DNA of 31,247 nt from Candidatus Hydrogenedentota bacterium (lineage in GTDB: Bacteria > Hydrogenedentota > Hydrogenedentia > Hydrogenedentales > SLHB01), in contig JAWXCN010000176.1 in NCBI GenBank assembly GCA_034408725.1, positions 1 through 31,247 on the forward strand, read 5' to 3'. Under the pieces are notes generated by a model. The model worked only from the letters and a program-made list of their open reading frames with translations, was not told where the DNA came from and searched no databases. Shown piece by piece: positions 155 to 20,900 of the stretch. Made by a program: the position numbers and the translations under genes. Each line of letters begins with the position of its first letter. Position 1 is the stretch's first letter.

Positions 155-3100
155 TCAAGTGATATGTACCAGAATTGTCACCCGATGAAACCGCCCTCTC
201 TCCACATCAAGTTTAAAGGTAAAGGGCTTTTCGGCGTCCAGCGCGCCAAGGCCTTTTTTCAGTTCTTCTATGAGCACGTCCATACTGGATAATGGGATGC
301 CATTCAACCCCACGACATGGTCCATGAACTGAATTCCAGCAGTCTTATAGAATGACTCGACTAGGTTTACAACCTGCCGTTCTGATCGGCTCGAAGTAAA
401 GACTTTATCCACCCAAAACCCATCAATCTCCTGATCGAATACGGGTAAATCGAAATTTGCACTGTACATCCGTGCGTATTCGATTGCTGTTGCACGTCCT
501 GAATCAATTGTTTCGATTCCTTGCTTCAGAATTAAAGACGCGAGCATCCGGGGTAAAGTAACACTGCGCGTTTCTATGACTTGAGGGGTAATCTCGACTT
601 CAACGCTTCGCTCACCTTCCGGGCCGGCAAACGTCATCGTTCTTTTTCCGACGGTTCCGGTTGACAGGCTGTTCAGGAATTCGTCAACCATCGCGCCACC
701 TTGTTCTGCGGTGTCAATACGAACACCGTCCAGAGCGGCTAGCTGATACTCGCTTTCGAGGCCAAAATATCCGAATGTCTCTCGCAGCCGCCGATCACTC
801 AAATCAGTTATAGCTTCATGTCCACTGTCAACGTTTTTACCCGAGGATTGTTCCATGATTTTCACGGCACGGCGTAGCGATTTCTCAATGTTCTGCGGTG
901 TGATGATTACTTTGTGTACTGTGGAATCATTGTTCTCCGCATCTGGCAGCAGAGACGCATCTCGCTTGAACTGTTCGAACCTGCGCACCCACGGTGATGA
1001 CGCATCTCCGGGAAGAGACTCCTGACGCCACGGAGATGCTTCCCAAATTTGCATTTCGTTTTGTGCACTGACGGCAAGTCGTGTGCCATCCAGGCTCCAG
1101 GAAAGGCCAGTGTAGGGCGACTCGGAATGCGTAAGAGTCAAGAGCACTTCGGCATTTCCGGTATCCCAAATACAAACGCTTTGATCAGCAGACGCGGCTG
1201 CGAGGCGAGAACCATCAGGACAGAACACGATGGAAGTGATTCTATTCACTTGCGCCTTGAACCCTCCAAGCTGCTTTTTTGAGCGCACGTCCCAGAGCTT
1301 TATTTCACCATCGGTTGAACCGGATGCAAGCCGGGTTCCGGAAAAATCGAAAGCGAAAGCGGAGATAATAGTGGAATGCCGCCCCATTACCGTCGGCTCC
1401 TGGCGCTCATTTATATCCCAAAGAATGACATCTCCAGTCTCAGTACCTGTTACGGCAAATTCGTTATCCAGGTCCACCTGAAATGTAGAGACCACTTCGG
1501 ACGGATACACGATGGTTTTTACAATTTTGCCTGTGTGGACATCGAAGATGGTCAAATCTCCCATAAACCCCGCGGCCAGAATTTGCTTTCCATCAGAGGT
1601 AAATTGCGTGATTGCCGTATTGAACACGTCCGTGGAAACGATCCGTTCTGCCGAAAAGGAATCCCAGTCGAGTATCAAGGATTCTCCTCGATAGCTGTGG
1701 ACCAATATGCGTCGTCCGTCGCTGCTCCATTCTGCCCTCCGACCGACGACCCCAGCCAAAGTTCGCAAACAATGGCCGGTCTTGGCATCTCTTACCTGAA
1801 TGGTTCCCGTATCAAGAGTCAGAATCACCTTAGAGGCGTCTGGGCTAAGGTCGATTGATTTGATGCCATCTGCCTGTGTTGCCCAAATTTTTGACCCGCC
1901 TTTCAAAGACCAGAGTTTCACCTTTCCGTCGAATCCACACGAAAGCAGTTCCGTTCCCGAATCTGCACGGCAAACATGCGATACTGTTTCCGAGTGCCCT
2001 TCAAAAGTTTCCACAACGGTCTCATTGGAAATATCCCAGGCGCGTATTATCTTGTCTGAACCTCCCGTTATGATTTGGCTTTCGGTCGGATCAAAATCCG
2101 CGGAAAACAATGCGCTGGGGTGGGAAAAAGTCTTCACTGCGTGATAGTCGCTCATGTCCCAGGTGCGGGCTGTTTTGTCGTAACTCGCTGAAACCAGCAG
2201 TCGCCCGCTCGGGCTAAACGCGAGCCCGCGAACCACATCCTCGTGTCCGGTTAAAGTAGCAAGCTCTTTACTGCTTATTACGTCCCATATCTTGATCGTC
2301 CCATCACTGGACGCGGAAGCGAGACGGGCGCCGTCTGGGCTGAATGCCACCCTCCATACCGAGTCACGATGACCGGCAAGCGTGGTCTTTTTTTCTCCCG
2401 CGATGTCCCATATGACGATGGTATTACTCAATAATGGCGCAGCGATTAGCGTTCCAGCATGATTAAAGCGTGCACTTATGGCCGCATCCGTGATGGCGCT
2501 GCCAAACGCTTTGACTCGATCCCCCGTCGCGGCATTCCATAATTGGACGGTGTGACTTCTTTCGGCAGTTAACACAAGTTCTCCGTTTGGACTGAATTCG
2601 GCGCTGGTGACTTCATTGGAACCAACCAGCAGACTACGAACAAGCGCGCCGGTGCTAACTTCCCATATCTTCGCGGTACCATCAAGACCGCAGGTCACAA
2701 TGCGCGACCCGTCCCGGCTAAAACTTCCGAACAAAACCGGTCCGCTATGTCCACTAAACGTCTGCCTGTCGCGATTGCACAGACCCAACAAATAACCCCA
2801 TTCCCAGTTACGCAGGTTGCGCGGCGTGTTCCAAAGCGTTTCATTGGCCTGATCATACTGCGATTTATCGGACAATGCATGCGCCAGTAACAGACTGGTG
2901 CGATACACTGCATACTCCGTTTGATCGCGGGACAGCACTGCCTCGGAGCGCGCTTCCTCAGCTTCTTTCCGGGCAACCACAGCAATGTCTCGTTCACGCA
3001 CCACACGTACATACGAGGTGGCGCCAACAAACGCGAGTATCAGGAGTGCCGCCGTCGCAGTGAGCGCAACAGCTTTGTGTCGTCTGAAAGCGCGCGCAAG

Positions 3101-4411
3101 CCTTTCCTTCCACCCATATGCGTATGTCTGCACCAGCGCGCCTGAGAGAAAGCGGCGTACTTCATCGGCCATCGCAGCGGCAGAGGGGTACCGTTGCTGA
3201 GGCTTCTTCTGCATCGCCTTCATGCATATTGCACGGAGCTCAGGCGGTATGGTCCTGTCCAGTGGCGCGGGTTCGTCATTTAACACGTGCTTGATGATTA
3301 CAACGGGCGTTTCGCCGTAGAAAGGCCGATTACCAGATAACAACTCGTAGAAAACCGCTCCGAGGCTATATACATCGCTTAGTTCATCAATCCAATCCAG
3401 TTTACCAAGCGCCTGTTCTGGTGGCATGTACGCAGGGGTGCCCATAACTTGGCCATATTGCGTTTTTGCTGCGGAGTCGACCTCACCCAGGTGCAGTAAG
3501 CGAAAAGTTTCGGCCAGTCCATCCGCATGGAAATCCTTAGAATCTTTGCTTTTGGCTAAGCCCCAGTCCAACACGACAGTTTCCCCGAACTCTCCCACCA
3601 TCACGTTATCGGGTTTAATGTCACGGTGGATTATTCTGCGGCTGTGTGCATATGCGATCGCGTGGCACAGATCGACGAAGTGAGACAGAAGAGTCAGGCG
3701 TTGCGTAAGCGTTTTGCATTCATTCATCGCCTGCCGCAGTGTCTTACCGCGGACAAGCTTCATTGTGTAATAAAGCCTGCCATCACTCCGATGTCCAAGC
3801 TCATAGACTGGAACGATGGATGGATGTTCCAGTTGTCCCGTAATCCGGGCTTCCTGTAAAAAACGCGCGAGGAAGCCCATATACTCGCGTACCGGCGTCG
3901 ACGGGCTTTCCGGATCTTTTGGCGTCGGGCCAGGAAGCAATTCTTTGAACGCTACGTCACGGCCGAGAAATGCGTCATGCACCAGCAACACGCGTCCCAT
4001 GCCGCCACGCCCATATTCGCTTACATGAGTGTAACGACCTGGAGTTTCTTGAACGCCCGGAATGGATTGGCCATCCAAGTACCGGATGGGTTCCGCGATG
4101 TTCCCACTGGGTAGAGGACCACGCGATGGAACGATGGCACCGGCAAAAGTCTGTTCGACAAGATGGTCCCCACCCAGTGTCCGCAGGGTGGCGGCTACGT
4201 CGCCATTGTGCGCAGCGACGGCTTCATTAACCAAACGACGTATCAGGTTTGCATCGTCGGTTCCCATCGCGTTGATTTCTACGAGGCGCGCTGCAAGAGA
4301 TCTGGATGGGTCAATCGCCCAGGCGCTTGCCGCTTCCATCAATTGCGCTGGCATCACCTTGCGGAGTTGAACGGCAAACACGCCGAAAAGCAGGTTTAGA
4401 TCGTTGTCCAT
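155..4411 (-). CDS. Membrane-anchored Hanks-type Ser/Thr protein kinase with WD40 repeats and C-terminal PDZ-like region
   Basis: Kinase motifs GRGGMGRV, VAFK, FLQEA, HRDIKPDN, DWG and GTPAYMPPEQ; TM segment AVALTATAALLILAFVGATSY; roughly 13-14 GH...WD-type repeats. Confidence 0.95.
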   Translation of the reverse strand: MDNDLNLLFGVFAVQLRKVMPAQLMEAASAWAIDPSRSLAARLVEINAMGTDDANLIRRLVNEAVAAHNGDVAATLRTLGGDHLVEQTFAGAIVPSRGPLPSGNIAEPIRYLDGQSIPGVQETPGRYTHVSEYGRGGMGRVLLVHDAFLGRDVAFKELLPGPTPKDPESPSTPVREYMGFLARFLQEARITGQLEHPSIVPVYELGHRSDGRLYYTMKLVRGKTLRQAMNECKTLTQRLTLLSHFVDLCHAIAYAHSRRIIHRDIKPDNVMVGEFGETVVLDWGLAKSKDSKDFHADGLAETFRLLHLGEVDSAAKTQYGQVMGTPAYMPPEQALGKLDWIDELSDVYSLGAVFYELLSGNRPFYGETPVVIIKHVLNDEPAPLDRTIPPELRAICMKAMQKKPQQRYPSAAAMADEVRRFLSGALVQTYAYGWKERLARAFRRHKAVALTATAALLILAFVGATSYVRVVRERDIAVVARKEAEEARSEAVLSRDQTEYAVYRTSLLLAHALSDKSQYDQANETLWNTPRNLRNWEWGYLLGLCNRDRQTFSGHSGPVLFGSFSRDGSRIVTCGLDGTAKIWEVSTGALVRSLLVGSNEVTSAEFSPNGELVLTAERSHTVQLWNAATGDRVKAFGSAITDAAISARFNHAGTLIAAPLLSNTIVIWDIAGEKKTTLAGHRDSVWRVAFSPDGARLASASSDGTIKIWDVISSKELATLTGHEDVVRGLAFSPSGRLLVSASYDKTARTWDMSDYHAVKTFSHPSALFSADFDPTESQIITGGSDKIIRAWDISNETVVETFEGHSETVSHVCRADSGTELLSCGFDGKVKLWSLKGGSKIWATQADGIKSIDLSPDASKVILTLDTGTIQVRDAKTGHCLRTLAGVVGRRAEWSSDGRRILVHSYRGESLILDWDSFSAERIVSTDVFNTAITQFTSDGKQILAAGFMGDLTIFDVHTGKIVKTIVYPSEVVSTFQVDLDNEFAVTGTETGDVILWDINERQEPTVMGRHSTIISAFAFDFSGTRLASGSTDGEIKLWDVRSKKQLGGFKAQVNRITSIVFCPDGSRLAAASADQSVCIWDTGNAEVLLTLTHSESPYTGLSWSLDGTRLAVSAQNEMQIWEASPWRQESLPGDASSPWVRRFEQFKRDASLLPDAENNDSTVHKVIITPQNIEKSLRRAVKIMEQSSGKNVDSGHEAITDLSDRRLRETFGYFGLESEYQLAALDGVRIDTAEQGGAMVDEFLNSLSTGTVGKRTMTFAGPEGERSVEVEITPQVIETRSVTLPRMLASLILKQGIETIDSGRATAIEYARMYSANFDLPVFDQEIDGFWVDKVFTSSRSERQVVNLVESFYKTAGIQFMDHVVGLNGIPLSSMDVLIEELKKGLGALDAEKPFTFKLDVERGRFHRVTILVHIT

Positions 4412-7261: not shown

Positions 7262-9691
7262 TTATCGCATGGGCGCTTGATCGCGCGGGGCGGGGACGAA
7301 CGGGCGGTGATCGATTTCCGTGGTCATTTTGAGTCCGGCGATCATGGCCATTTCGCGGATGCGGACTTCAATTCCCTCTGGCGCGTCCGGATGGACGCGA
7401 ACAATAACGGTGGGTTTCGGCTTTGCGTCGCGGTAGGTGTCAAACTTCGCCCCGAGATCGCTCTCGGTGACAATTTTTCCTTCCGAGAATATCGCTCCAG
7501 TGTGCCCGACTGATACGCTGAGCTCATTCTCACCCTTGGCCAATCGATCACCGGTGCGGCCGAATATGCCTTTTTCCGTATGACGCATCTTATCGGTATT
7601 TTCTTCGTCGAATGCCGCGGCGCGTTCAGCTTCCGGCTGGGTGAACTCATCCACAATCGTAGGCGTTATAAATACTGCAAGCTCGCGGTCTATGTGGTCT
7701 TTGCTCGTGTTCTTGAAGAGCCGGCCAATAAAAGGAAGTTCGGCAAGGATGGGCACACGTTCGACGTCGTCTTTCACGCTCATGGCGCGTAACCCGCCGA
7801 TGACGATGGTTTGTCCATCGTTCACCAGCACCTTTGTTTGGGCCTTGTTCTGCGTTTTCTGCGGGATGGTGCTGGCAAGGCCGCCTGCGAGAATCGTCTT
7901 GTCTTCCGCGGAGCTTTCTTCCGACTCGATCTCCATGAGGATGTTGCTCTCCTCATTGATGCGCGGTTTTACTTTGAGGATTGTGCCGACCTTGATGAAC
8001 TGGACCTGGCCGGGGATGACGCGGCTCGAGACATCATTCACTGGGTCATTTCCACCATCGATGACCGTGCCGCCGAATCCGGTAAAGCCGACGCTTTGAA
8101 AGGGTTGGTCGGTCGTGTTTTCAAAGGTCGCCTCTTCCCCATCTTGTACTGTCACGCGTGGCCGGGCGAGAATGTTGAGTTCGCCGGTGCTGTCGAGGAA
8201 ATCAAGCACAACGGCTATGCGATCACCCTTGAACTCTGGATCAAGTATGTTGCGGCCTGTCAACGACCCAGCCTCCGCGCCGCCGGGGTTGCTGACCTCT
8301 TGTCGTATCGCGCCGGTGACGGGGTCGCGCAGAAATGCGCGGTATGGGTACCGGCCCCCGGAAACACGCTGGCCCGCCTCGGGCGCGGCGGTATAGTTTG
8401 GACGGTTTCCCCCGCTCTGAATCGAGAAGGGTGAACCGGCGATATCGTCGAAATACGCCCAATCGATCGAGAGGTCGCGAAGAACAGTCGTGGCGGCGGA
8501 CACGAGAAACGCTTCGATCTGGACCTGTTTGCCCTTGACGTCCCAATCCGCAATCATGGCGTCTACTTCTTCGATGCGGCTTGCAATGGCGGTCAGACTG
8601 ACCTGATGCGTATTTTCATCCGTCGTGATCACACCCGTCTCTTCCGGGATAATGTTTTCGAGCCGCTCGGACACGGCTTCGGGTTCGATATAGCGTAGTG
8701 TCCACGTTTTTGTAATGAGCGGTTTATCGAGCGCCTCGAGCATGGTGGCGATTTGATCCTGCCGCGCGGGCAGGTCCGTCACGACGATGCTGTTCGCGCG
8801 TGGATCCGCCTGGGCAAGGCCGCGCTCGGACAGGAGGCTTTGAATGGTCTCTAGCAAGTCATCCGCGGCCAAGTGTTGAAGCATGAAAACGCGGGGTTCG
8901 AGGGGAACGTCAAGCCGGTCCACGGCCTCGCTCATGGCCTTCAAATTCGCCTGCGTGTCCCACACGAGCACGCTTCCGGTGCGCGGATCGCTGATCAGCC
9001 GGCCGGTCTGCGACATCAGGCCATTGAGGACCGCCTCCATGTCCATCACATCGGCGTGCTCGATTGAAAATTCAGCTTTCTTCAGCGCGCCGTATTCGCG
9101 TTCAAGAAATTCGCCGTCGAGCATGACGTAGAGGAAGCGTGTTTCGGGCTCGAACTCATAGTGGATATTATTAAACTTCAGGATTTCCATGACCTGGCGA
9201 GGCTTAACATTGGTGACCCAGAAGCGAATCGACTTTTCTTCCACCCCCGTGGATGCGACGATGTTCCAGCCGGTAGCCGTTGCGACGGCATCGAGTACTT
9301 CAATGACGGAGACCGGCGCGTCCGAGGCGTTGAGCGTGATGGGTTCGCCTTCATCGGGGAGCGCGACCATGGGCATTGCTTCCAGCAAGATGGGCTCGAA
9401 TGCCCCTTCGCCGCCGATGGTGACCTGCCGGCGATCTCCTTGAATGGCGGTGACGCCGGTGCTTTTCCCCGGCTCCTGGGCGCGGGGAGTCGCTTGCTCC
9501 TGGGGCTGTCGCGCGCGGCTTTCTGCTTCGGCTTGCGCTGTATCCTGCATGAGTATGGCGCCCACACTCGCGTCGACCGTAGGCGCCGGCGCGGGTTGTG
9601 TTGGGCTTTGCTGGGCATTGGAAGCGAACCCGAACAGGGCGATCAGCGCGCCCACGGCAAGTATCCACGTGTATCGGGTGTATTGCACCAT
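7262..9691 (-). CDS. gspD: Type II secretion secretin (GspD-like) with C-terminal ExbD/TolR-like extension
   Basis: Signal peptide after ATG 9691 (MVQYTRYTWILAVGALIALFGFASNA); three N-domain repeats (D.RT..V.V.D); secretin core QVQIEA, RPRVTVQDGEEA, GQTIVIGGL, VPILAELPFIGRLF and FITPTIV. The ORF-track start at 9943 overlaps the upstream gene. Confidence 0.92.
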   Translation of the reverse strand: MVQYTRYTWILAVGALIALFGFASNAQQSPTQPAPAPTVDASVGAILMQDTAQAEAESRARQPQEQATPRAQEPGKSTGVTAIQGDRRQVTIGGEGAFEPILLEAMPMVALPDEGEPITLNASDAPVSVIEVLDAVATATGWNIVASTGVEEKSIRFWVTNVKPRQVMEILKFNNIHYEFEPETRFLYVMLDGEFLEREYGALKKAEFSIEHADVMDMEAVLNGLMSQTGRLISDPRTGSVLVWDTQANLKAMSEAVDRLDVPLEPRVFMLQHLAADDLLETIQSLLSERGLAQADPRANSIVVTDLPARQDQIATMLEALDKPLITKTWTLRYIEPEAVSERLENIIPEETGVITTDENTHQVSLTAIASRIEEVDAMIADWDVKGKQVQIEAFLVSAATTVLRDLSIDWAYFDDIAGSPFSIQSGGNRPNYTAAPEAGQRVSGGRYPYRAFLRDPVTGAIRQEVSNPGGAEAGSLTGRNILDPEFKGDRIAVVLDFLDSTGELNILARPRVTVQDGEEATFENTTDQPFQSVGFTGFGGTVIDGGNDPVNDVSSRVIPGQVQFIKVGTILKVKPRINEESNILMEIESEESSAEDKTILAGGLASTIPQKTQNKAQTKVLVNDGQTIVIGGLRAMSVKDDVERVPILAELPFIGRLFKNTSKDHIDRELAVFITPTIVDEFTQPEAERAAAFDEENTDKMRHTEKGIFGRTGDRLAKGENELSVSVGHTGAIFSEGKIVTESDLGAKFDTYRDAKPKPTVIVRVHPDAPEGIEVRIREMAMIAGLKMTTEIDHRPFVPAPRDQAPMR

Positions 9692-9822
9692 GTGATTCAA
9701 GCAGAACGCGCAATAATGTCGCGACTGCGTCTTCCCCTTCCCGGTTTTCCGCGGCGACCCGCCGCGCGGGTTGCATTGTCGAGAGTATAACGAAACGAAG
9801 CGCCTGTTGGTAGACAGTGCCG

Positions 9823-10305
9823 CTATTTTCGCGGCAAACGTATGCCGTGTGTTTGGCCCTGCTGCACGACGGTAAATAAAACTTCGGTATCGGTTATTTC
9901 CTGAAGGGTGCATCCCTTGATCGACTGCCCCTTCGAGAACCATTCCTTCTTGCCATCGACCCTGATCTGCACGCGGATGGTGTCACCGCTGCCCATGGTA
10001 TTGCGGGTCGGCTCGACGCCGGCGAGCATTTGCAGCAAGGCGGGCGGCGGCGCTACAACGGCCGGGGGCGGTACGAGGGGTTGCCATAGTTTGGGCCGGG
10101 CGGATACGTTTTGTTGCCACTGTTCAAATTCGGCGCCCGCGTTGAAATCCAGGTTGAGTTCTTCCGGCGAGGCTTCGGCAATGCGCTGGTCAAACTGTTG
10201 GCGTTTGGCTTTTACGGGGTTGCGCACGAGCCCCGCGACAAACAATACGACGCACAGGGCAAGGACGCCCCAGGCGATTGCGTATGCAGCGCGCTGAACA
10301 ATCAT
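9823..10305 (-). CDS. GspC/PilP-like assembly protein (TM, Pro-rich linker, HR-like beta domain, no PDZ)
   Basis: N-terminal TM, PPPAVVAPPP linker, VDGKKEWFSKGQSIKGCTLQEITDTEVLF; lies directly before the secretin. Confidence 0.65.
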   Translation of the reverse strand: MIVQRAAYAIAWGVLALCVVLFVAGLVRNPVKAKRQQFDQRIAEASPEELNLDFNAGAEFEQWQQNVSARPKLWQPLVPPPAVVAPPPALLQMLAGVEPTRNTMGSGDTIRVQIRVDGKKEWFSKGQSIKGCTLQEITDTEVLFTVVQQGQTHGIRLPRK

Positions 10306-11393
10306 TTTTGGTACTCCCGCAACATGACGTTGTCGATGGTGAGGATTGTCCCGGATTGCTCGAGCACGATGGAAGGAACACGCATGGCTACAGGCGCGCC
10401 GTCCACGCCTGGTACCGTAAATACGAACCGGTACCGGAACGGGCCAATGCCTGGTTCGACGTGCGATTCACCGGGTATTGATGCCCCGTCCGCTTCCAGG
10501 ATAACTCGGACCGAGAATGCGCCGGTCGCGCTCGCATCAAATAGCAATTCATAGGTTGCTCCGGCTATCAATTGTTGCGCCTGGTAGAGTTCGGCGGGCG
10601 CGCCTGTCGCCGTAACCACCAGTGCAGCAGTACCGTCGGTTGCGTCGGGACCGGTTGCTAGCGAAGCGTTTTGCGCGGACCAATCCTGCGCGAGCGATTG
10701 CTGTGCGTCAAATTGCTCGAAGCTTGCGTTACGCGCGAGATTCGTTGACGTATCGGGCGGCAGCGGCGCAGACGCGCTGCTGGCTTCGCCTGTTGCATCG
10801 TCGATCACCGTGCGGGTGACGTGAAACTCCGCGCTGACCGCGGCTGTCAGGGGTTGCCGGACCAGTTCCAAAAAGTCGACGCGCAACGCCTGCGCGCTCT
10901 GCTGCAAGCGTTGAAGAAACTCCGCGATGTTCAGGATCGAGGTGGGTTCGGTCCTGAAATTGATCTGGTAGCTGCGGTAGCCATCTCCACTGTCGTCGAG
11001 CGCGCCGGCAGGCATCGCGCGAATCTCGACGAGGCTATCCCCGGGATTGGACGCTGTCGGCAGCGGCGCGCCTTCCTGTGGAATCTGGCGCAAGGACAAA
11101 CGAGTTATTTCAAAGCGCAACCGATCATGTATCTCTTGCTGGGTCCACTGGCTTGAGTGCTGCGACGCCATGGATTGAAACGCGCGCTCGACCGGTTCCG
11201 CAAGGGCCGCCTGATTGGTGTATTGAAGGAGAAGTTGTTCCTGGCTCTCGATTGAAGCATCGAGGGACGCGAGGGCGTCCAGGCAACGCAGCGTGACCAC
11301 AAACGCAAGCCCAACGGCCAGTAGAAAAAGGACAATGAAGGCGAGGCGCCGCTCGGATGGCGAAAGTTTTGCAATTGCGTTCGAGAGCGCCAT
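10302..11393 (-). CDS. GspM/PilO-like platform protein with C-terminal CBM4/9-like domain
   Basis: LSPSERR-TM N-terminus typical of GspM; coiled coil; ferredoxin-like FLQRLQQS...LRVDFLEL; tail NLARNASFE...TIDNVML. Confidence 0.7.
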   Translation of the reverse strand: MALSNAIAKLSPSERRLAFIVLFLLAVGLAFVVTLRCLDALASLDASIESQEQLLLQYTNQAALAEPVERAFQSMASQHSSQWTQQEIHDRLRFEITRLSLRQIPQEGAPLPTASNPGDSLVEIRAMPAGALDDSGDGYRSYQINFRTEPTSILNIAEFLQRLQQSAQALRVDFLELVRQPLTAAVSAEFHVTRTVIDDATGEASSASAPLPPDTSTNLARNASFEQFDAQQSLAQDWSAQNASLATGPDATDGTAALVVTATGAPAELYQAQQLIAGATYELLFDASATGAFSVRVILEADGASIPGESHVEPGIGPFRYRFVFTVPGVDGAPVAMRVPSIVLEQSGTILTIDNVMLREYQK

Positions 11394-11395
11394 TG

Positions 11396-12883
11396 CTACT
11401 CGCTAGTATCGCCGGCAGTGGCGTCTTGAGGTGCTTCTTCGGCCAGGGGCACAATTATTTCGAACTGATAAACCGACTGGTTCTGTTCCATTTCCTCGCG
11501 CGTATCGCCGCCCTGTGCGCGAGCAAATTGTGGAACTTCGCCCCGTCGCCCGGAACTGCGGAGTGCGTCAGCGAGTTCATACGCCAAGCCGGGAGACTCA
11601 GCGCGGCACTGGATTGTGAGCGTGTCGTTGTGACTGAAAGTAAAGCGCAATACGTTCACGCCGGAGCGTGGAATGAGCTCACTCAGTTTTGCAAGCATTT
11701 CCAGCGCGCTGCCGCGCCGATCCAGATGCTGTTGAAGCCGCACAAGTTGTCCGCGTTTGGTTTCGACACTTTCCGCGATGGACTCGAGCACGCCGATACG
11801 GGACGCGAGTTCTTTCGCATACGTGGCACGCTGGTAGTACGCTTGCGCGAACACGGCGACAGCGCTTATCAATATTGCCGCGGCCAACCCACCGGCGGTG
11901 AACGCGGTTTTACGGAAGCTCGACGCGCGCCGGGCATCCACCAGTGATCGCGGCACGAGGCTGAGCGAGAGCGATGCACGGTCCTGCGCGGCAAGCGCGG
12001 CGCCAGTCGCCACCAACGGTATACCGGGTGTTGGCGCGGCGCCATGCTCGAACAGTGATCGCGCAAACGCGGCGGGCTGGCATTCGTGGCCGGTAATCTG
12101 GGTCAAAGCATCCGCGGCCGCGGCGCAATCCGCATACTCCGAGCAGACATACACGATATCGACCGCCTCGCCGTCTTCGCTATCACGCCGGTATGCGGCA
12201 AGTGACGCGCGCACTTCGGCGGCAAGTTCTTGTGCTTCCGGTGAATCGGCATCGGAGATATTCCGCCAATCCTGTGCGGACGCGACGCCACGGCCATACA
12301 GGAGTTTGCCCTGTTGCAGCACGAGCACTTCCAGTCCGCCAGCGCCGAGATTCACGAGGGCGGCGCGTTCGCCGGGAAGCTGGGCAGCCTGCGCTGCCGC
12401 GGCCAGGCAGGCGGTGCTGACATAGATATGGTCCGGTTCAATTCCGCATGCGCGAAGCATATCGACGTGGTCTTCCACGACGTCGCGGTGCGCGAACACC
12501 GCCAATACCGTTGACGAGCCGTCCTGGGTTTTGCGGAGAATGGATTGATCGATCACGACTTCATGCGCGGGGTATGGAACAAATTCCTCCGCGCTCAGCC
12601 GCACCATGCTATCGACTTCGACCGCGCTGTGCGTTGGCAGTGACAGAATTCTTGCGGTCATATCGTGGCGAGGAAGGACCGTACACACGTTGTCGTCCGC
12701 GACTTTATGCTGCTTTACAAACGCTCTGACGGCGTCCGTGAGCGCGCCATCCGAAGCCGGCCAGTTTCCATGCTGGACGTCATACGCGGATACGTCAACG
12801 CCTTTTGGCGAGCGCTTCACGCGTAACCGTGTAATCAGGCGTTCATCGAACTGAAGAATGCTGGTATATGCTTTATGGGCCAA
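11396..12883 (-). CDS. GspL-like protein (PilM-like actin fold, TM, PilN-like periplasmic domain)
   Basis: EEFVPYP.EVVID, LAVFAHRDVVE and ALVNLGAG motifs; LSLVP then TM and coiled coil. Likely TTG start at 12883 with GGAAGG SD, overlapping the gspK stop. Confidence 0.8.
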   Translation of the reverse strand: MAHKAYTSILQFDERLITRLRVKRSPKGVDVSAYDVQHGNWPASDGALTDAVRAFVKQHKVADDNVCTVLPRHDMTARILSLPTHSAVEVDSMVRLSAEEFVPYPAHEVVIDQSILRKTQDGSSTVLAVFAHRDVVEDHVDMLRACGIEPDHIYVSTACLAAAAQAAQLPGERAALVNLGAGGLEVLVLQQGKLLYGRGVASAQDWRNISDADSPEAQELAAEVRASLAAYRRDSEDGEAVDIVYVCSEYADCAAAADALTQITGHECQPAAFARSLFEHGAAPTPGIPLVATGAALAAQDRASLSLSLVPRSLVDARRASSFRKTAFTAGGLAAAILISAVAVFAQAYYQRATYAKELASRIGVLESIAESVETKRGQLVRLQQHLDRRGSALEMLAKLSELIPRSGVNVLRFTFSHNDTLTIQCRAESPGLAYELADALRSSGRRGEVPQFARAQGGDTREEMEQNQSVYQFEIIVPLAEEAPQDATAGDTSE

Positions 12884-13853
12884 GTTCGCCTTCCGACCAC
12901 GAGAGTATCGCGGCGTTTCCCGGTTGCAGATGAACGACCGCCTTCGCCGCCGCGCGCACTTTGCCTTGCCGTTTCGCGGCAAAGCCCGTGATTGTAAAAA
13001 ACTGTGATTGGAGCGTGCAATATTGCGCAACGGGGGCAAGGTCCGTTGGGTCTACACCGAGCGCGGCGGGAATCGATTCCAGGTTCCGGAATGACCGGTC
13101 GTCGCTGGTATTGAGCTTGTTGTCGTCCCCTTCACGGTAGGCAATGATCGCGTCCACGACATCATCGTCAAGGTCGGGGACGGCAAGCAGTACGTCGCGC
13201 GGCGCGCTATTGAGATTGATGCGGCCTTCGCCATAGATGGTGAACAATTCGCGAAGACCGGGTTTCCCGTCGCTTCCCTCCCAGTCATCTTCATCAACGC
13301 CTTCGAGAAAACGTCCTTCCTCCACGGAGAGAAACTGATGTCGCTCTTCCGGCGTAAGTTCGCCGCCGCGATACCGCATGATGGCGGAAACCGTCGAGAA
13401 ACTCAGCCCTTCGATTTCGTCGAGAAGTTCTTCGGTTGCGGTATTTAGCGAGATGCGGGCCTCGGCGTCTGACACACTGTACCCGATGGTATTGGCCGAG
13501 TCGTTGGAGGAAGGGGTGAATATCTCCGATTGGTCTGAAAGCGAGACGATCCTTTTACCGCCGCGCGCCGGATCCACCGAGTCGGCCCGGAATGACGTAG
13601 GAATACCTTGCGCGGCGGCCTGTTCCCTGGCCTGAAGCAATATTGCTTCAGTCACCGCCTTGTTCCGCATATCGGCCACGGCATACTGCACTGCGCCGCG
13701 CGCAAGGAATTGCGTCTGCGCATGGTCCAGCGCGAGCGCCGCCGCGCGCTGGTCCAACAATGCCCGATTCGCAAGCCCCAACGTGAGCACCGTAAGAATT
13801 GCAATGATCCATATGATGGCGACAAGGATGAACCCTTCTTCGTTATGTTTCAT
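12873..13853 (-). CDS. gspK: Minor pseudopilin GspK
   Basis: G|FILVAIIW prepilin N-terminus lacking E5; duplicated RISLNTA/RINLNSA modules; SQFFTI. Confidence 0.88.
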   Translation of the reverse strand: MKHNEEGFILVAIIWIIAILTVLTLGLANRALLDQRAAALALDHAQTQFLARGAVQYAVADMRNKAVTEAILLQAREQAAAQGIPTSFRADSVDPARGGKRIVSLSDQSEIFTPSSNDSANTIGYSVSDAEARISLNTATEELLDEIEGLSFSTVSAIMRYRGGELTPEERHQFLSVEEGRFLEGVDEDDWEGSDGKPGLRELFTIYGEGRINLNSAPRDVLLAVPDLDDDVVDAIIAYREGDDNKLNTSDDRSFRNLESIPAALGVDPTDLAPVAQYCTLQSQFFTITGFAAKRQGKVRAAAKAVVHLQPGNAAILSWSEGELGP

Positions 13854-14641
13854 TGGACAACATACTCCTCGGCGTCAAGGGAGGTCTCTTTCAACCGCGT
13901 CGTTGGACCATGCATCACGGCATAGGTGGTGAACGCGGCTTCCCCTTTCTCCGAGTTTGGATCGATCAGAGTGAGATTGATTTTGATTGCCTGCGGAATG
14001 CCGGTACCTTCTTCGTGATCACTGCGAATGATTATTTTTGCAGGGACCAAATTCGCGATACCGGACCCAGGAATATCAAACGCGGCCTGGACGGGATCGC
14101 TCAGGAACTGTGCACCTGCGATCTGCTCTTTCCAATAATACTGGAGTTCAAAATCCTCGACGCCCGCGGCCAACTCGAACTGGGATTCGCTGCCATGCTT
14201 GATGATGGTGCTGTCGATTTCGCCGCCATCTGGAGGTTTCGAAGGAAGCGGACTTTCGACTGTCCGTTCTTCGCGAATGAGCAGCTTGCCTTCCCCGTCT
14301 GGATCAGACTTGGTGCGGTACCTGATCCACAACACACGCGGGGCCGAACCATCTTCGACGTCCATCGGGCGCGTGACGGCATAGAACTCGAACTCGTCGT
14401 TCGTGCCCACAAACAAATGCGATGCGCCGGGCACCATGTTCTGAAGTTCGCGGGACAGGATGTCCAGAGCAGTCCTGGCGTCCTGGTAGGTTTGCGTGTT
14501 CGATTCGCCCTTCTTCCAGATGTTAATCGACGACGAAAACGCCGTGTACACGGAGCCGAGGATCACGGCGAGTATCGTACTCGCGACGAGCAACTCGGCG
14601 AGGGTAAAACCATCGTTATGCCGCGGGTTGTGCGGGGACAT
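13850..14641 (-). CDS. Minor pseudopilin GspJ-like
   Basis: G|FTLAELLVA N-methylation motif, LSREL and IPQAIKINL; position in the cluster. Confidence 0.82.
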   Translation of the reverse strand: MSPHNPRHNDGFTLAELLVASTILAVILGSVYTAFSSSINIWKKGESNTQTYQDARTALDILSRELQNMVPGASHLFVGTNDEFEFYAVTRPMDVEDGSAPRVLWIRYRTKSDPDGEGKLLIREERTVESPLPSKPPDGGEIDSTIIKHGSESQFELAAGVEDFELQYYWKEQIAGAQFLSDPVQAAFDIPGSGIANLVPAKIIIRSDHEEGTGIPQAIKINLTLIDPNSEKGEAAFTTYAVMHGPTTRLKETSLDAEEYVVQ

Positions 14642-15101
14642 CCGGCGGCTCCTTTACAAGCAGGCGCTTCGAGGACAACAAGGATTCTGCGGTTGCGCTA
14701 TAGTTGCGGCCCGCGCGCGTCCACGAAATCGTTACAGAAATCCTGCCAAGATAGGGTTCGGGCAATTCCGGCAAATCGATGACGAATGGCTGCAATTCCA
14801 CGGGAATTACCGGTTCCGGAAGATCGACGCGCGCAACCGACCACGCATACGAAAAGCGCTGTTGCTTCTCCCCAAAATCTCCGGCGGAAGACGCGCCTTC
14901 CAGATGCCCGGTCTGAATTTCGAGCTCGCCCATCTTCTCTTCGAGCAGAAAGCGGGCAGTGGTGTAGTCACGCGCGATTGCGCGGGTTGCAAGGGTTTCG
15001 CGCAGGGCACGGTTAATTGCGAGCACACCGATGCTCAGCAGCACCAGCGCCACGAGAGTTTCCATGAGGACCCAGCCTTCTTTGCGCGAGCGCCGCATCA
15101 T
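14616..15101 (-). CDS. Minor pseudopilin GspI-like
   Basis: G|WVLMETLVAL prepilin motif, GDFG...FSYAW and ISVTISW. Confidence 0.8.
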   Translation of the reverse strand: MMRRSRKEGWVLMETLVALVLLSIGVLAINRALRETLATRAIARDYTTARFLLEEKMGELEIQTGHLEGASSAGDFGEKQQRFSYAWSVARVDLPEPVIPVELQPFVIDLPELPEPYLGRISVTISWTRAGRNYSATAESLLSSKRLLVKEPPDVPAQPAA

Positions 15102-15604
15102 TCAGTCTCGACTTCCAACTGACCCAGACGGCCTTTAGTGCTGATCTTCGTCGAGGTGCGTTTATCAAGCGCGATGATAACGGTTGCATAATCGCACGCG
15201 CCGCCCGGATAGAACGCGACGAAGTAAGCGTCGCGATCGCGGTCCATCGCCGCCTTGGGTTTCTCGAATTCCATTTCTCGTGGCAGTACCCCGCGCGTGG
15301 CGCCTGCGTCGTCTACTTCCAGAAAAGTTTTTTTGCCGTCTTCCGCCGTCTCGGCTTCGCGCATGAGCCAAAATGCGCCGGTATCGCGGTTCAAATAAAA
15401 CCGGTACTCCGCGACATCTGTAATAGCGCGTTCCTGGGCATATTTCATGCGCGCGAGCACGTCGCGGGTCGCGCGGTCTTTACGCGCCCAACTCACCGAA
15501 CCGGAATACATGGGCACGACCACGGCCGTCATGATCATGATGATGCTCAAAACCACGATAAGTTCGAGGAGCGTAAACCCCGTGTTTTGTTTCGCGGCAT
15601 GCAC
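15098..15604 (-). CDS. Minor pseudopilin GspH/FimT-like
   Basis: G|FTLLELIVVL, YAQERAI and VAFYPGG. Confidence 0.85.
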   Translation of the reverse strand: MHAAKQNTGFTLLELIVVLSIIMIMTAVVVPMYSGSVSWARKDRATRDVLARMKYAQERAITDVAEYRFYLNRDTGAFWLMREAETAEDGKKTFLEVDDAGATRGVLPREMEFEKPKAAMDRDRDAYFVAFYPGGACDYATVIIALDKRTSTKISTKGRLGQLEVETE

Positions 15605-15607
15605 GCG

Positions 15608-16000
15608 TTAGGTCTCGTTTGTGTCCCAAACGGAAATATCGTCTTCGGTGTTGGCGATCTCATCCGCGCCCGTCGAGTACAGATCGTATTTGTTCTTTTT
15701 GCCCGGATACGCGTACACGTAGGCATTGCCCCAGCCGTCGGGTTTGATCTGTTGAATGTAACTGCGGCCTTTCTTGTCGACGATAGAAAGGTCGTTGAGG
15801 GACTTTGGATACTTGTCTTCATGTTCGAGCGCATACGCCTCGACGGCGTTTCGATACACCGAAAGGTCGGACTGTGCCTTGATCTCGCGCGCCTGGTTGC
15901 CGCGGCCAGCAACCGCGAACGCGACCATACCCGCAAGTATGCCCATGATCACCATGACCAGAATCAATTCGATCAGGGAGAACCCGCTGTTTTCCCGCAT
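15608..16000 (-). CDS. gspG: Major pseudopilin GspG
   Basis: G|FSLIELILVM, PDGWGNAYVY..PG and YDLYSTGAD...TEDDI; GAGGAGG SD. Confidence 0.92.
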   Translation of the reverse strand: MRENSGFSLIELILVMVIMGILAGMVAFAVAGRGNQAREIKAQSDLSVYRNAVEAYALEHEDKYPKSLNDLSIVDKKGRSYIQQIKPDGWGNAYVYAYPGKKNKYDLYSTGADEIANTEDDISVWDTNET

Positions 16001-16030: not shown

Positions 16031-17242
16031 CTACGATACGTTCGCGCTCATGGTGAGAATCGGCATCAGCATTGACACGACGAGCCCTCCCACCAGCACG
16101 CCCATTATGATTATCATGATCGGTTCAAGTAGCGCGGTGAGCGTTTTGACCGCGCGGTCCACTTCAATGTCATATGCATCGGCCATGCGTTTGGTGACTC
16201 CGCCCAACTTGCCGCTTTCTTCGCCAATGACAAACATGTTCACCACCATCGGCGGAAAATACTTCGTTTGGGCGAGCCCGGAACTGATGCTGTCGCCTTC
16301 CGCAACGCGGGCCTGCACGACGTCCACTTCACGCGCGATGGCGCGGTTGCTCAGCGTTTCGACGGTGATGCGGAGTGATTTGAGGACCGGCACGCCGTTG
16401 TCGAGCAATGTTCCAAGCGTCCGGGCGAATTGGGCCATAACGTATTTTTGAACGACGGCGCGCACAACCGGAATGCGCAACAGGACCGTATCGCACACCA
16501 TGCGGCCATCTGGCGTGCGCCAGTAGTACACCGCGCCGGCCACTGCGCCAACCGCCGCGAGCAGAACGGCCCACCACCAAGTGCCCATGAACCCGCAGAT
16601 AGCAAGCACGATACGGGTGGGCAACGGCATTGGGACGCCGAAATCCTCGAACAAAACGAGGAACTTGGGAAACACGAACGACGTCAGGATAAAGATTGCG
16701 AGCGTGCCCATGATGACAAGAATCGCGGGGTAGATCATCGCCGATATAGCTTTGGCGCGCAGTTCTTCATCCTGTTCGCCGAACTGGACGATGCGCCACA
16801 AGACTTCTTCCAGCATGCCTCCCGTTTCGCCGGCGCGCACGAGATTACAGTGCATCGGCGTGAAAACTTTTGGATGGCGTTCCATGGCTTCGGCGAAGGT
16901 GCTGCCTTTTTGCACGTCGTCCCGCAATTGCTCAACGACGGCCACGAGTTTGGCGTTGGTTGTTTGTTGGGTGATTGTAGATAGGGCGCGAGTCAGCGGC
17001 ATACCCGATTCGATCAGGGTCGCCAACTGGCGGAACAGAATGTTGCGTTCCTTCAATTTGACCCGGGTCATCGCGCGAAGGAGGGCATCGTTTTTCCGTT
17101 CGCCCGAAAACTCTTCGATGGAAATCGGGAAATATCCCATGTCTCGAAGACGGACGACCGCGGCGCGGCGGCTCTCGGCCTCCAACACCCCTGTTGTGGT
17201 TGGGCCGGGACCTTTCTTCACCTCATACTGAAACTGCGGCAT
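16031..17242 (-). CDS. gspF: Inner-membrane platform protein GspF/PilC
   Basis: Motifs FRQLATLIESG, AGETGGML, AMIYP, GEESGKL and LLEP. Confidence 0.95.
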   Translation of the reverse strand: MPQFQYEVKKGPGPTTTGVLEAESRRAAVVRLRDMGYFPISIEEFSGERKNDALLRAMTRVKLKERNILFRQLATLIESGMPLTRALSTITQQTTNAKLVAVVEQLRDDVQKGSTFAEAMERHPKVFTPMHCNLVRAGETGGMLEEVLWRIVQFGEQDEELRAKAISAMIYPAILVIMGTLAIFILTSFVFPKFLVLFEDFGVPMPLPTRIVLAICGFMGTWWWAVLLAAVGAVAGAVYYWRTPDGRMVCDTVLLRIPVVRAVVQKYVMAQFARTLGTLLDNGVPVLKSLRITVETLSNRAIAREVDVVQARVAEGDSISSGLAQTKYFPPMVVNMFVIGEESGKLGGVTKRMADAYDIEVDRAVKTLTALLEPIMIIIMGVLVGGLVVSMLMPILTMSANVS

Positions 17243-17243
17243 A

Positions 17244-18965
17244 TCAAGACTCGACGGTGTCGAACATGTCGGATTCCGCGGTCACGCGCACGACTTCCTC
17301 GAAGGTCGTCTTTCCTTCGCGGACGCGTTGCCAGCCGGAACTGCGCAGCGTGCGCATGCCGAGTTCCATTGCGCGGCGTTTGATATGGGTTGACGGTTCG
17401 CGGCGAATCGTCATGTCCTTGATTTCATTCGTGAATGGAAGCAGCTCGTATATCGCGATGCGGCCGTGGTATCCCGTGTTCCGGCAGGCGTCGCATCCGC
17501 GGCCACGGCGGAACGTCGCGCCTTCGCCGTCTTTCGGGGATTTCCCGAGTTGCGCATAGTCCGTTGAGCTGGGAGTAAACGGTTCCGCGCAATGCACGCA
17601 GATACAGCGCACCAGGCGTTGCGCGAGCGATGCGATCATCGTGCTGGCGATCAGGAACGGCTCGACGCCCATATCCACGAGACGCGTGACGGCCCCGGCG
17701 GCATCGTTGGTGTGCAGCGTGCTAAACACCAGGTGACCGGTGAGACTTGATCGGATCGCCATTTCCGCCGTTTCATAATCCCGGATTTCACCGACGAGCA
17801 TCACGTCGGGATCATGCCGCAACATCGAGCGCAGGGCAGACGTAAAGTCGAACCCGATCTGCGGCATGGTCTGCATTTGGGTGATACCCTTGAGCTGATA
17901 CTCGATGGGGTCTTCGATCGTGATAATTTTATGTTCGAGTTTGTTGAGCTTACTCAGCGCCGCGTAAAGTGTAGTGGTTTTGCCGCTTCCCGTCGGGCCC
18001 GTGACGAGAATCATTCCGTGCGGCCGCGTGAGAAAAGTGTTGAACACGGTGAGGTCGTCGCCGGTAAACCCGAGTTGTTCGAGTGTCATGAACATCGAAG
18101 AACGATTGAGAATACGAAGATTGACCGTCTCGCCGTGCGGCGTTGGCAATACGGATACGCGTAGATCGAATTGTTCTTCGCCGAGCGATGCGCGAATCTT
18201 ACCGTCTTGCGGCAGCCGCTTTTCGGCAATATTGAGGTTTGCCATAATCTTCAGGCGCGAAACGATGGCCGGTTGGAATCCCCGGATGCTCGGCGGAGTT
18301 GGAACACCGTGCAGCACTCCGTCGATACGATAGCGCAGTCGGAGTTGATCTTCGAAGGGTTCAAGATGGATGTCGGTGGCGCCGCTACGAATCGCTTCCG
18401 CGAGCAGTTCATTTACGAACTTGATGATGGACGCATCGAGGCTGTCATCACCAAGATCGGTCCCGCCATCGAGCGTCAGCACGCTCGCGGTGGAATCCGA
18501 TTCGCTCAAGATGCGTTCGACCGTATCCGCGCCGACACCGTACAGGGCTTTTGTCGCGCGCACGATTTCCTCGGGCGTGGCCACGCACATTTCCACGCGC
18601 TGCTTTTTGAGCACGAGGCGGATGTCATCGAGCAACTGGTGATCGAGCGGATCGGAAACCGCGACGACAATCGTGCCGTTGCGCTCCTGAATGGGCACGA
18701 AACTATAGTGCGTTGCGAACCGCGCGGGGACCTTTGCAACGACGCCGTGCGGAATGTCCATTTTGCTCGGCGCGACAAATCGCATCTCACAAAAATCCGC
18801 CAACGACCGGTACACGGCCTCGGCAGTGGCGGCCCCGGTTTCCACGAGCGCTTGCGATAGGGCGACGCCAACGCGACTGGCATGTTCGCGGGCCTGGTGC
18901 AACCGGGCGTCGTCGACGACTCCGTCGCGGACCAATTGACGTTCGAAGGCGGTTTCACCGGCCAT
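17244..18965 (-). CDS. gspE: Secretion ATPase GspE/PilB
   Basis: Walker A GPTGSGKT, TIEDPIEY, DVMLVGEIRD, GHLVFSTLHTN and tetracysteine CVHC...CDAC. ATG 18965 has a GGAGA SD; alternative TTG start at 18971. Confidence 0.95.
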   Translation of the reverse strand: MAGETAFERQLVRDGVVDDARLHQAREHASRVGVALSQALVETGAATAEAVYRSLADFCEMRFVAPSKMDIPHGVVAKVPARFATHYSFVPIQERNGTIVVAVSDPLDHQLLDDIRLVLKKQRVEMCVATPEEIVRATKALYGVGADTVERILSESDSTASVLTLDGGTDLGDDSLDASIIKFVNELLAEAIRSGATDIHLEPFEDQLRLRYRIDGVLHGVPTPPSIRGFQPAIVSRLKIMANLNIAEKRLPQDGKIRASLGEEQFDLRVSVLPTPHGETVNLRILNRSSMFMTLEQLGFTGDDLTVFNTFLTRPHGMILVTGPTGSGKTTTLYAALSKLNKLEHKIITIEDPIEYQLKGITQMQTMPQIGFDFTSALRSMLRHDPDVMLVGEIRDYETAEMAIRSSLTGHLVFSTLHTNDAAGAVTRLVDMGVEPFLIASTMIASLAQRLVRCICVHCAEPFTPSSTDYAQLGKSPKDGEGATFRRGRGCDACRNTGYHGRIAIYELLPFTNEIKDMTIRREPSTHIKRRAMELGMRTLRSSGWQRVREGKTTFEEVVRVTAESDMFDTVES

Positions 18966-19006
18966 CGTCAAATCTCCAAAAGCATGACAACTCGTGCATT
19001 ATCAAT

Positions 19007-20158: not shown

Positions 20159-20167
20159 TTCCGGGTT

Positions 20168-20773
20168 TCATTCACTATCCGCTCCATACATATCGCGCAA
20201 TTCCACCTGCAGCTTTCGCAGTGCGCGGAACAGATGAACCTTCACGCTCCCGACACTGCAACCCATTACGTCAGCGATCTCCGCCAATTGCAAACCTTCG
20301 TAGTGCCGCAGGACAAATACGCTGCGTTGGGAGGGTGACAACACGACGAGTGCCGCTTGCACGCGCGCTTCGATTTCCATTGCCTGGACAGCGCTACCGG
20401 TTCCCGCCGCGGAAGCATGCTCCCGATGCCGCTCGTTGCCTTCTGAATCGATGGAGTCGAGTGGTTCGGTTTGCCGGCGTTTGCGCCAGCGGACCACGTC
20501 AATGGACTGATTGGCCGTAAGGCGCAGCAGCCAGGGCAAGAATCCGCTAATGGGTTGCCATGATTCAATTTTGCGAAAGGCCTTTAGAAAAACTTCCTGG
20601 GCCACGTCAAGGGCATCGTCCCGGTTGCAGGTGATGCGATAGGCCACGGAATAAACGCGACCCTGGTGGCGCCGCACGAGTTCGTCTAGCGCCTTTGCCT
20701 CCCCCTGTTTGAGAGCTTCGGCCAACTGCTCGTCGTCCGCAGCCTTCAAGTCCATGTCCTGCTTCCAGTTCAC
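20168..20773 (-). CDS. ECF-family RNA polymerase sigma-70 factor
   Basis: Motifs DDALDVAQEVFLKAF, FLPWL, LSPSQRSVFVLRHYEG and EIADVMGCSVGSVKVHLFRA. Start is GTG 20773 or ATG 20755. Confidence 0.93.
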   Translation of the reverse strand: MNWKQDMDLKAADDEQLAEALKQGEAKALDELVRRHQGRVYSVAYRITCNRDDALDVAQEVFLKAFRKIESWQPISGFLPWLLRLTANQSIDVVRWRKRRQTEPLDSIDSEGNERHREHASAAGTGSAVQAMEIEARVQAALVVLSPSQRSVFVLRHYEGLQLAEIADVMGCSVGSVKVHLFRALRKLQVELRDMYGADSE

Positions 20774-20777
20774 TCCA

Positions 20778-20807
20778 TTAACGCCCCAAAGTGCCGAAAG
20801 GTTTACA
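20778..20807 (-). promoter_or_regulatory. Putative ECF-type autoregulatory promoter
   Basis: TGTAAAC-17nt-CGTTAA immediately upstream of the ECF gene (AAC/CGT ECF signature). Confidence 0.55.
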
Positions 20808-20900
20808 ACGGCCAATTACGACACGAACATGAACTCTCCGGCGCTCCTACTGCCATGAGACTACATGGGTGACGCCGCGCCGGTAGATCGCCGGGCGCGA

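Follow-up and report, generated by a model that had tools for sequence, protein, structure and literature searches.

A motor-less ExbD/TolR-like periplasmic domain at the C-terminus of a type II secretion-type secretin from the main order of Hydrogenedentota

To our knowledge, periplasmic domains of the ExbD/TolR type have been described only within proton motors of the inner membrane, and a locus of a Candidatus Hydrogenedentota bacterium raises the question of what such a domain might do at the end of an outer-membrane channel. The stretch of DNA analyzed here, referred to as the window, comprises 31,247 nucleotides (NCBI GenBank assembly GCA_034408725.1, contig JAWXCN010000176.1, positions 1 to 31,247 of the forward strand). 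A single open reading frame (ORF) on its minus strand, 7262..9943 (-), encodes a secretin, and the element in question occupies the 3' end of this frame, window positions 7262-7534 being the final 90 codons of the secretin gene and its stop. An initial annotation, made from the letters of the DNA, had read these codons as an ExbD/TolR-like periplasmic domain joined on after the secretin core and a helix, and lacking the aspartate-bearing transmembrane helix of ExbD and TolR. The residues quoted in support of that proposal, FITPTIV followed by a tail of ~90 amino acids, are present in the sequence and belong to one ORF. A start at MVQYTRY (window position 9691), shared by the protein's database form and the orthologues, gives 809 residues; because the database form starts there, so does the coding sequence used here (Table 1).

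The assignment of the protein to the secretins is secure. The secretin pore domain (PF00263) scores 138.1 bits against a Pfam cut-off of 27.5, and Secretin_N (PF03958), the repeated ring-building domain of the N-terminal part, is matched in three stretches (110.8 bits). The protein falls between PilQ and GspD in NCBIfam, under the cut-offs of both: the GspD equivalog TIGR02517 reaches 194.7 bits (cut-off 351.35) and the PilQ family TIGR02515 reaches 202.9 bits (cut-off 284.35). Its gene closes a co-directional operon in which GspE-, GspF- and GspG-type genes lie upstream on the same strand, as in a type II secretion system (T2SS). All named relatives come from Candidatus Hydrogenedentes/Hydrogenedentota, and three of the four related loci found with an alignment of eight tails are titled Candidatus Hydrogenedentota. 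In Pfam searches with E values up to 1, neither an AMIN nor any other wall-binding domain was found in the window secretin; a SPOR domain (PF05036) has no Pfam match in it and is present only in relatives.

At its C-terminus, the protein reads ...FITPTIVDEF TQPEA...ELSVSVGHTGAIFSEGKIVTESDLGAKFDTYRDAKPKPTVIVRVHPDAPEGIEVRIREMAMIAGLKMTTEIDHRPFVPAPRDQAPMR and then the stop, with 126 residues after FITPTIVDEF. This tail continues the secretin in one uninterrupted frame in its relatives as well, most rows having no internal stops. Two linker helices come first, between the secretin core and the ExbD-like domain; they are amphipathic or charged, and judging from their place in the chain they would occupy the position of the S-domain. 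In an alignment of 28 tails, T1, E4 and R29 of this segment are invariant, and conservation reaches at least 90% at P3 and K24. The helices are followed after ~2 residues, in the AlphaFold2 (AF2) model, by a domain of ~70 residues with the order β-β-β-α-β-α-β (strands at tail residues 40-45, 51-53, 56-58, 78-83 and 105-109; helices at 60-69 and 89-101). Conservation in the domain is highest at the motif HP(R)AP, which sits in the loop before helix 2; in sets of 28 and of 51 sequences, its H84 and P85 show at least 90% conservation. Conserved as well are the first hairpin's glycines and the last strand (consensus KVEFD). Fusion after the core and a helix was correctly recognized at the outset.

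Several sequence comparisons bear on the relationship of this domain to ExbD and TolR. ExbD (PF02472) is the sole Pfam family with an E value below 0.1 on the tail (E 6e-4, 20.3 bits), aligning tail residues 33-98 with profile positions 51-116 of 128; on the whole protein it scores 17.1 bits. NCBIfam has no match on the tail. All eight close orthologous secretins retain the tail with 52-73% identity, and a profile built from these eight was searched against 1.84 billion representative proteins. The search returned 50 proteins at E ≤0.001, with the match at or near the C-terminus wherever the length of the protein allowed this to be judged. A Secretin domain was found in 40 of the 51 sequences formed by these proteins and the window protein, and many of the others are short metagenome fragments. 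Pfam ExbD is matched at E ≤0.01 in 19 of the 51 family members (best E 6.3e-6). None of 12 database proteins examined has a precomputed PF02472 label; the tail-bearing proteins are named at source either 'hypothetical protein' or 'general secretion pathway protein D.'

The genome from which the window comes allowed a comparison with resident relatives, since it has four true ExbD genes that encode the classic membrane helix and lie beside ExbB-like genes. Alignment of these four ExbDs with hhalign gave a probability of 79.3% (E 1.6e-5) for the profile of eight tails and 96.0% (E 3.9e-9, 70 columns) for that of 50 tails, the HP(R)AP loop pairing with the 'D....' loop of ExbD. In the reciprocal test, an unfiltered search with a hidden Markov model (HMM) of the 50 tails took in all 45,855 ORFs in the genome with 60 amino acids or more. 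The secretin ranked first and two ExbDs ranked second and third (E 6.2e-4 and 0.02), followed at rank 6 by a third ExbD with a non-significant E value of 3.7. Searched across the phylum, a 28-tail profile also retrieves short stand-alone ExbDs with the classic transmembrane helix, at E ~1e-7.

Structure prediction and fold comparison lead to the same family. The AF2 models of the domain have predicted local distance difference test (pLDDT) values of 84-89 with eight sequences and 94-97 with 28, with an identical order of elements, and they show a sheet of five strands that has two helices on one face, as in the ExbD/TolR fold. When both models were compared with the PDB using Foldseek, places 1-6 were taken by ExbD/TolR structures; the best match was 8p9r_A (E 1.3e-4, target TM-score 0.79, root mean square deviation (rmsd) 2.5 Å, 72 columns), and only four matches had E ≤0.001. 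VIA, an all-against-all aligner independent of Foldseek, compared 48,161 chains with both models. It placed Escherichia coli TolR (5by4_A) first with Z 9.1 and 9.6, the sole chain at Z ≥8, and Haemophilus influenzae TolR second (Z 7.2 and 7.6); ExbD (2pfu) came sixth and fifth (Z 5.8 and 6.3), and unrelated RNase-H-like or kinase folds ranked between TolR and ExbD (Z 5.5-7.1). An RNase-H/integrase-like fold was rejected on its lower Foldseek ranks, rmsd of 5-7 Å and target TM-scores of 0.2-0.3. Among the named clusters of the ESM Atlas, ExbD/TolR came out best (0.88, rank 8), which is below the level that counts and serves as a lead only. The soluble-domain pattern proposed in the initial annotation, and the fold similarity by which it was to be checked, are therefore borne out by Pfam, hhalign, the reciprocal ranks, the AF2 models and both structure aligners, and the tail domain is very probably a true homologue of ExbD/TolR.

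The relationship does not extend to the motor. The absence of an aspartate-bearing transmembrane helix was also seen correctly at the start: no hydrophobic or transmembrane helix with such a residue lies ahead of the ExbD-like domain, which is preceded by the secretin core and the two helices. Any counterpart of the membrane-proximal intertwining segments is absent from the secretin-borne copy, the linker helix joining strand 1 within ~2 residues. The 31-kb contig contains no ExbB, ExbD or TonB-type gene, and the tail is not encoded with ExbB/TolQ/MotA; the genome has five MotA/ExbB (PF01618) matches, none of them on the window contig. Because it has no Asp helix and there is no MotA/ExbB on the contig, the secretin is not an ExbD/TolR protein in the functional sense. 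It carries the motor-less periplasmic module of ExbD/TolR alone.

Conservation of the tail among orthologous secretins had been named as a further check of the proposal, and beyond the eight close orthologues the tail profile matches 119 of 135 phylum genomes and 81 of the 86 high-quality ones. The usual pattern is one strong match per genome, in frames of ~800-1,080 residues; in the window genome, one of seven secretin-domain matches carries the tail. The other six matches of that genome lie on contigs C129, C39, C180, C240 and C273, and none has the tail; two of them are adjacent on C273, where the one at C273:14538-15002 carries another kind of tail, 112 residues long. Eight of the 16 genomes without a match belong to one genus, and in the four of these that were searched (G126, G128, G130, G132) no orthologue of this secretin was found, the best identity being 25-28%. 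In one further genome of the 16 (G043) the orthologue is truncated by the contig end, and in three others that were searched (66-88% complete) nothing matched at E ≤1e-20.

Two of the 16 genomes, the only ones from outside the window's order, are informative about the history of the tail. Both have an orthologous secretin (34-38% identity), which runs from core to helix to stop and has no ExbD-like domain. Because both out-of-order orthologues end in this way, a single insertion at the base of the order appears, from the sequences compared, to have placed the domain between the post-core helices and the terminal segment. The domain-less secretin of genome G002 ends in PFVP-containing sequence (Table 1), so the terminal PFVP may predate the inserted domain. 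The tail is thus order-wide, in the main order of Hydrogenedentota, and not phylum-wide. Some stand-alone ExbDs of the phylum, L037 1045..1494 (-) and L021 859..1290 (+), resemble the secretin tail in having HPDAP- or HPEAA-like loops before helix 2, and such proteins may point to the lineage from which the fused domain came.

What the module might do on a secretin is suggested by its behavior in TolR and ExbD. Locked as a strand-swapped dimer, the complete periplasmic domain of TolR fails to bind sacculi, whereas TolR(60-133), which is without the strand-swapped ends, does (PMC4646322). The periplasmic domain of ExbD contacts the glycan chains of peptidoglycan transiently via its dimer interface (PMC10771500). 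The ExbD dimer also captures the D-box of TonB, one partner strand, at the edge of its last strand, and its protomers contact one another through the loop before helix 2 (PMC10907165).

Following this analogy, one copy of the domain would sit on each secretin subunit, just outside the barrel wall, and with a copy on every subunit the copies should form a periplasmic collar. The collar would anchor and brace the channel in the envelope, chiefly via the glycan strands of peptidoglycan. In TolR and ExbD, the intertwining N- and C-terminal segments by the membrane helix hold a closed dimer and mask wall binding; with these segments absent, the copy on the secretin would be permanently exposed and binding-competent, with no need of proton-driven opening. 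Such a collar would do the job of the AMIN domains, GspA/B-type factors, TsaP or pilotins found with other secretins. Tentatively preferred here, with chances put a little short of even, is an anchoring or bracing role for a motor-less TolR/ExbD-type collar, which would act on the channel mainly by way of the cell wall.

The initial annotation had offered two possible roles, a replacement for pilotin or AMIN-type anchoring and a link to a Ton/Tol energizer; the genomic context of the tail leans toward anchoring or bracing and away from a link to a motor. In genus g17 (G102-G107; loci including L008, L009, L016 and L019), a SPOR domain (24.9-34.6 bits against a cut-off of 21) lies behind the tail in all six genomes, joined by a linker of ~100-150 residues rich in P, A and E. 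The database proteins P0011 and P0074 also extend the tail with a linker and SPOR. These extensions show that the C-terminus is periplasmic and within reach of the wall. Genus g28 (G122:C8, G124:C12) has a separate, convergent SPOR protein of ~285-308 amino acids, ~1 kb past the end of the secretin gene. A second architecture was found in one other genome of the phylum, at L036 2158..5382 (-) (G100:C83), where a protein of 1,074 residues has a motor-less ExbD-like domain (residues 557-627; 22.2 bits, Pfam E 1.5e-4) placed between a GH3 hydrolase domain (189 bits) and four LysM domains. The next-best matches are stand-alone ExbDs with 34-38% identity. In this GH3-ExbD-LysM protein the ExbD periplasmic module has been recruited a second time, independently, for a role directed at the cell wall.

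A number of observations weigh against a wall-anchoring collar or against the homology that it presupposes. The GH3-ExbD-LysM protein occurs in one of 135 genomes and was the sole find of its kind in the protein database search. There are no defined wall-binding residues of ExbD/TolR with which the tail sequence could be compared, and HP(R)AP departs from the consensus of ExbD, which makes another binding specificity possible. The long SPOR linkers can equally mean that the ExbD-like domain lies at a distance from the wall, such as just under the outer membrane at the site of pilotins, with no wall binding of its own; its place on the multimer is itself inferred. At the level of homology, the Pfam ExbD score of 20.3 bits is below the curated gathering cut-off of 25.4, and sequence-profile searches of the PDB with eight and with 28 tails retrieved no ExbD or TolR, their top rows lacking significance or belonging to unrelated proteins (a chaperonin, fructose-1-phosphate kinase).

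The position of the domain is also compatible with a collar that serves assembly or stability of the channel and makes no contact with the wall. Placed where a pilotin would act, the domain could staple neighboring subunits or shield the monomer before its insertion, with wall contact, where needed, left to other modules such as SPOR. The domain directly follows the two conserved helices at the S-domain position, and g17 requires its long linker and SPOR behind it. PFVP on one of the two domain-less out-of-order orthologues suggests that part of the tail may be older and have a partner of its own, and the HP(R)AP loop corresponds to the loop through which ExbD protomers meet. Nothing, however, sets the helices against the barrel in the way familiar from GspD, and we know of no pilotin-like function for the ExbD/TolR fold. 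In vitro, the cores of TolR and ExbD bind peptidoglycan on their own (PMC4646322, PMC10771500), and this stability role is regarded as unlikely, although it is the strongest competitor of the wall-anchoring collar.

A coupling device is a more distant prospect. Here the domain would capture a β-strand of an inner-membrane partner, or pair with a true ExbD/TolR protein, and so link the channel to the platform or to a proton motor. The edge of the last strand in ExbD recruits a partner strand (PMC10907165), the equivalent strand of the tail, KVEFD, is conserved, and the four ExbDs and five ExbB/MotA matches of the genome would be available in trans. Set against this are the 31-kb contig devoid of ExbB, ExbD or TonB-type genes and the presence in the operon of the usual platform-to-secretin connector. 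The upstream GspC/PilP-like protein was considered as the source of a D-box-like partner strand and was rejected: its sole Pro-flanked hydrophobic stretch, AVVA (PPP-AVVA-PPP), is replaced by KIDA, KVEA, AAPT and AAPP in the four orthologues and is thus conserved in none. Coupling in this general sense is accordingly improbable.

A specific form of the idea, in which the ExbD-like collar is the docking site by which a proton-driven Ton/Tol-type motor or a TonB-like transducer grips the secretin, is a long shot. If it were true, opening or assembly of the T2SS channel would be mechanically coupled to proton-motive force. Old reports hold that the T2SS requires proton-motive force and that GspB/ExeB is TonB-like, and a docking collar would give these reports a physical basis.

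A chance likeness to ExbD, the tail being a generic small α/β domain or a degenerate copy of a secretin N-domain, is very improbable: besides the sub-cut-off Pfam score and the PDB profile searches without ExbD or TolR, it can draw on a weak touch of the tail profile on the N-domain region of Deinococcus radiodurans PilQ (8co1, E 0.32), on 3.3 bits against the secretin's own N-domain and on RNase-H-like folds among the fold matches (Z 5-7), whereas four independent lines (Pfam, reciprocal HMM ranks, hhalign and the two structure aligners) concur on ExbD/TolR, the RNase-H and integrase rows superpose far less well than ExbD does, and a duplicated N-domain was rejected since those N-domain scores are non-significant and Secretin_N has no match on the tail at E up to 1.

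The tail can be compared with several known systems. It shares with ExbD/TolR (PF02472; PDB 8P9R, 8VGC/8VGD, 8PEK, 2PFU, 5BY4, 2JWK) the five-strand, two-helix fold, the strand order, recognizable sequence homology and the periplasmic compartment. It differs in lacking the N-terminal membrane helix with the proton-relay Asp, the intertwining linker segments and an accompanying ExbB/TolQ gene, and in having HP(R)AP where ExbD has 'D....'. It resides on an outer-membrane protein with as many copies as there are secretin subunits, whereas ExbD/TolR are present as two per motor. The T2SS secretin GspD has a C-terminal S-domain that ends in a pilotin-binding helix. The secretin core and N-domains, the gspE-F-G...D operon and the helical segment right after the core are common to GspD and the window secretin; here the helices are followed by the ExbD-like domain and PFVP and not by a pilotin-binding helix end, and no pilotin gene was identified.

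Other secretins are assisted at the cell wall by AMIN domains, as in PilQ, or by TsaP with its LysM domain. Further wall-binding helpers are ExeA/ExeB, that is GspA/B (PMC4098917), and OutB, which is covalently tied to peptidoglycan (PMC12274547). The theme of tying a secretin to the wall is common to all of these, and the SPOR-bearing relatives of the window secretin match it. The AMIN domains are N-terminal, the other helpers are separate proteins and none has the ExbD/TolR fold, whereas here the module is C-terminal and fused. With the OmpA-like stator domain of MotB (PMC4646322), the tail would share the idea of a peptidoglycan grip that acts once unmasked; it has no OmpA-family Pfam match, and its fold matches TolR/ExbD and not MotB.

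Table 1. Coordinates of the secretin, its tail and the operon genes in the window, with two domain-less orthologues at other loci.
Feature	Coordinates	Strand	Basis and remarks
Secretin gene, 809 aa + stop, final gene of the T2SS-type operon	7262..9691	(-)	ORF; start matches database form and orthologues; Pfam
Probable signal peptide, residues 1-26, ...GFASNA/QQ	9614..9691	(-)	Judged by eye
Secretin_N (ring-building N-domain), best scorer of three stretches	8720..8893	(-)	PF03958, residues 351-408 of the long ORF
Secretin core domain	7649..8197	(-)	PF00263, residues 583-765 of the long ORF
Pair of linker helices behind the core, tail residues 3-37, conserved TxPE motif first	7532..7636	(-)	AF2 helices 3-22, 26-37, pLDDT 50-76
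ExbD/TolR-like periplasmic domain, tail residues 40-110	7313..7525	(-)	Sequence, models, fold searches
HPDAP (family consensus HPRAP), loop between fourth strand and helix 2	7379..7393	(-)	Top-conserved motif of the domain
Terminal PFVP motif	7292..7303	(-)	V116, P117 at least 90% conserved
Upstream membrane protein, 160 aa: transmembrane helix, Pro-rich spacer, C-terminal β domain	9823..10305	(-)	GspC/PilP-like, from its layout
GspM-like protein, CBM_4_9-like C-terminal part	10302..11393	(-)	Pfam T2SSM E 4.4e-4, CBM_4_9 E 2.6e-3, both below cut-off
PilM-like (GspL-type) platform protein	11396..13039	(-)	Pfam PilM_2, 52.6 bits
Minor-pseudopilin-type genes, four	12873..15604	(-)	12873-13853 (HHH_3 match); 13850-14641; 14616-15101; 15098-15604
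Major pseudopilin GspG	15608..16000	(-)	Pfam T2SSG 56.6 bits, N_methyl 31.3 bits
GspF (16031-17242) and GspE ATPase (17244-18971)	16031..18971	(-)	Pfam T2SSF 209.2, T2SSE 431.4, MshEN 72 bits
Out-of-order orthologous secretin, G002	L029 973..3408	(+)	No ExbD-like domain; ends PPFVPRYRRRR
Out-of-order orthologous secretin, G001	L035 1366..3624	(-)	No ExbD-like domain

The remaining genes of the operon are listed in Table 1. The 160-residue membrane protein encoded directly upstream of the secretin holds that place in all four related loci and has no Pfam family below E 0.1. The combination of T2SSM with a weak resemblance to a carbohydrate-binding module (CBM_4_9) in the GspM-like protein is an odd pairing for an inner-membrane component of the T2SS. 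Because the ORF of the PilM-like gene overlaps the next gene, its real start is probably later than the listed TTG. Among the minor-pseudopilin-type genes, Pfam finds the N_methyl motif in two and HHH_3 in one, the other labels being assigned from position. Genes downstream of the secretin lie on the opposite strand and are unrelated (DUF423, a disulphide isomerase).

Directly upstream of gspE and on the same strand, window 19103..20815 (-) encodes an extracytoplasmic function (ECF)-type sigma factor (20168-20815) and a TPR-containing membrane protein (19103-20158) in an anti-sigma-like layout, a pair that may regulate the operon. Elsewhere in the window, 28291..29856 (-) encodes a trigger factor (Trigger_N, FKBP_C, Trigger_C) whose N-terminus is lengthened by ~65 residues, nearly all of them His, Asp and Thr (HDHDHDH...HHHHH), in what resembles a metal-binding tail; by eye, its gene belongs to an apparent tig-clpP-clpX-lon row. 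At 155..4411 (-), a protein of 1,418 residues has, besides its Ser/Thr kinase domain (114 bits), one membrane helix and ~2 WD40 propellers.

Secretins and ExbD/TolR domains are both well known; their fusion, and the presence of an ExbD/TolR domain outside a motor and on an outer-membrane protein, are new to the literature found. No report of a secretin with an ExbD/TolR-like domain was found in a search that covered main texts and not supplements, and the word 'secretin' has no occurrence in a 2025 survey of periplasmic force transducers (PMC12204202). The tail had been missed by standard annotation, and it represents an ExbD/TolR domain that has been freed from its motor, joined to an outer-membrane channel and retained across a whole bacterial order. 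As a natural motor-free version of the domain, it would allow wall binding, strand capture and self-association to be tested apart from the switching of TolR and ExbD between closed and open states. For the secretin family, it would add a new kind of accessory module to the AMIN domains, the S-domain with its pilotin, GspA/B and TsaP.

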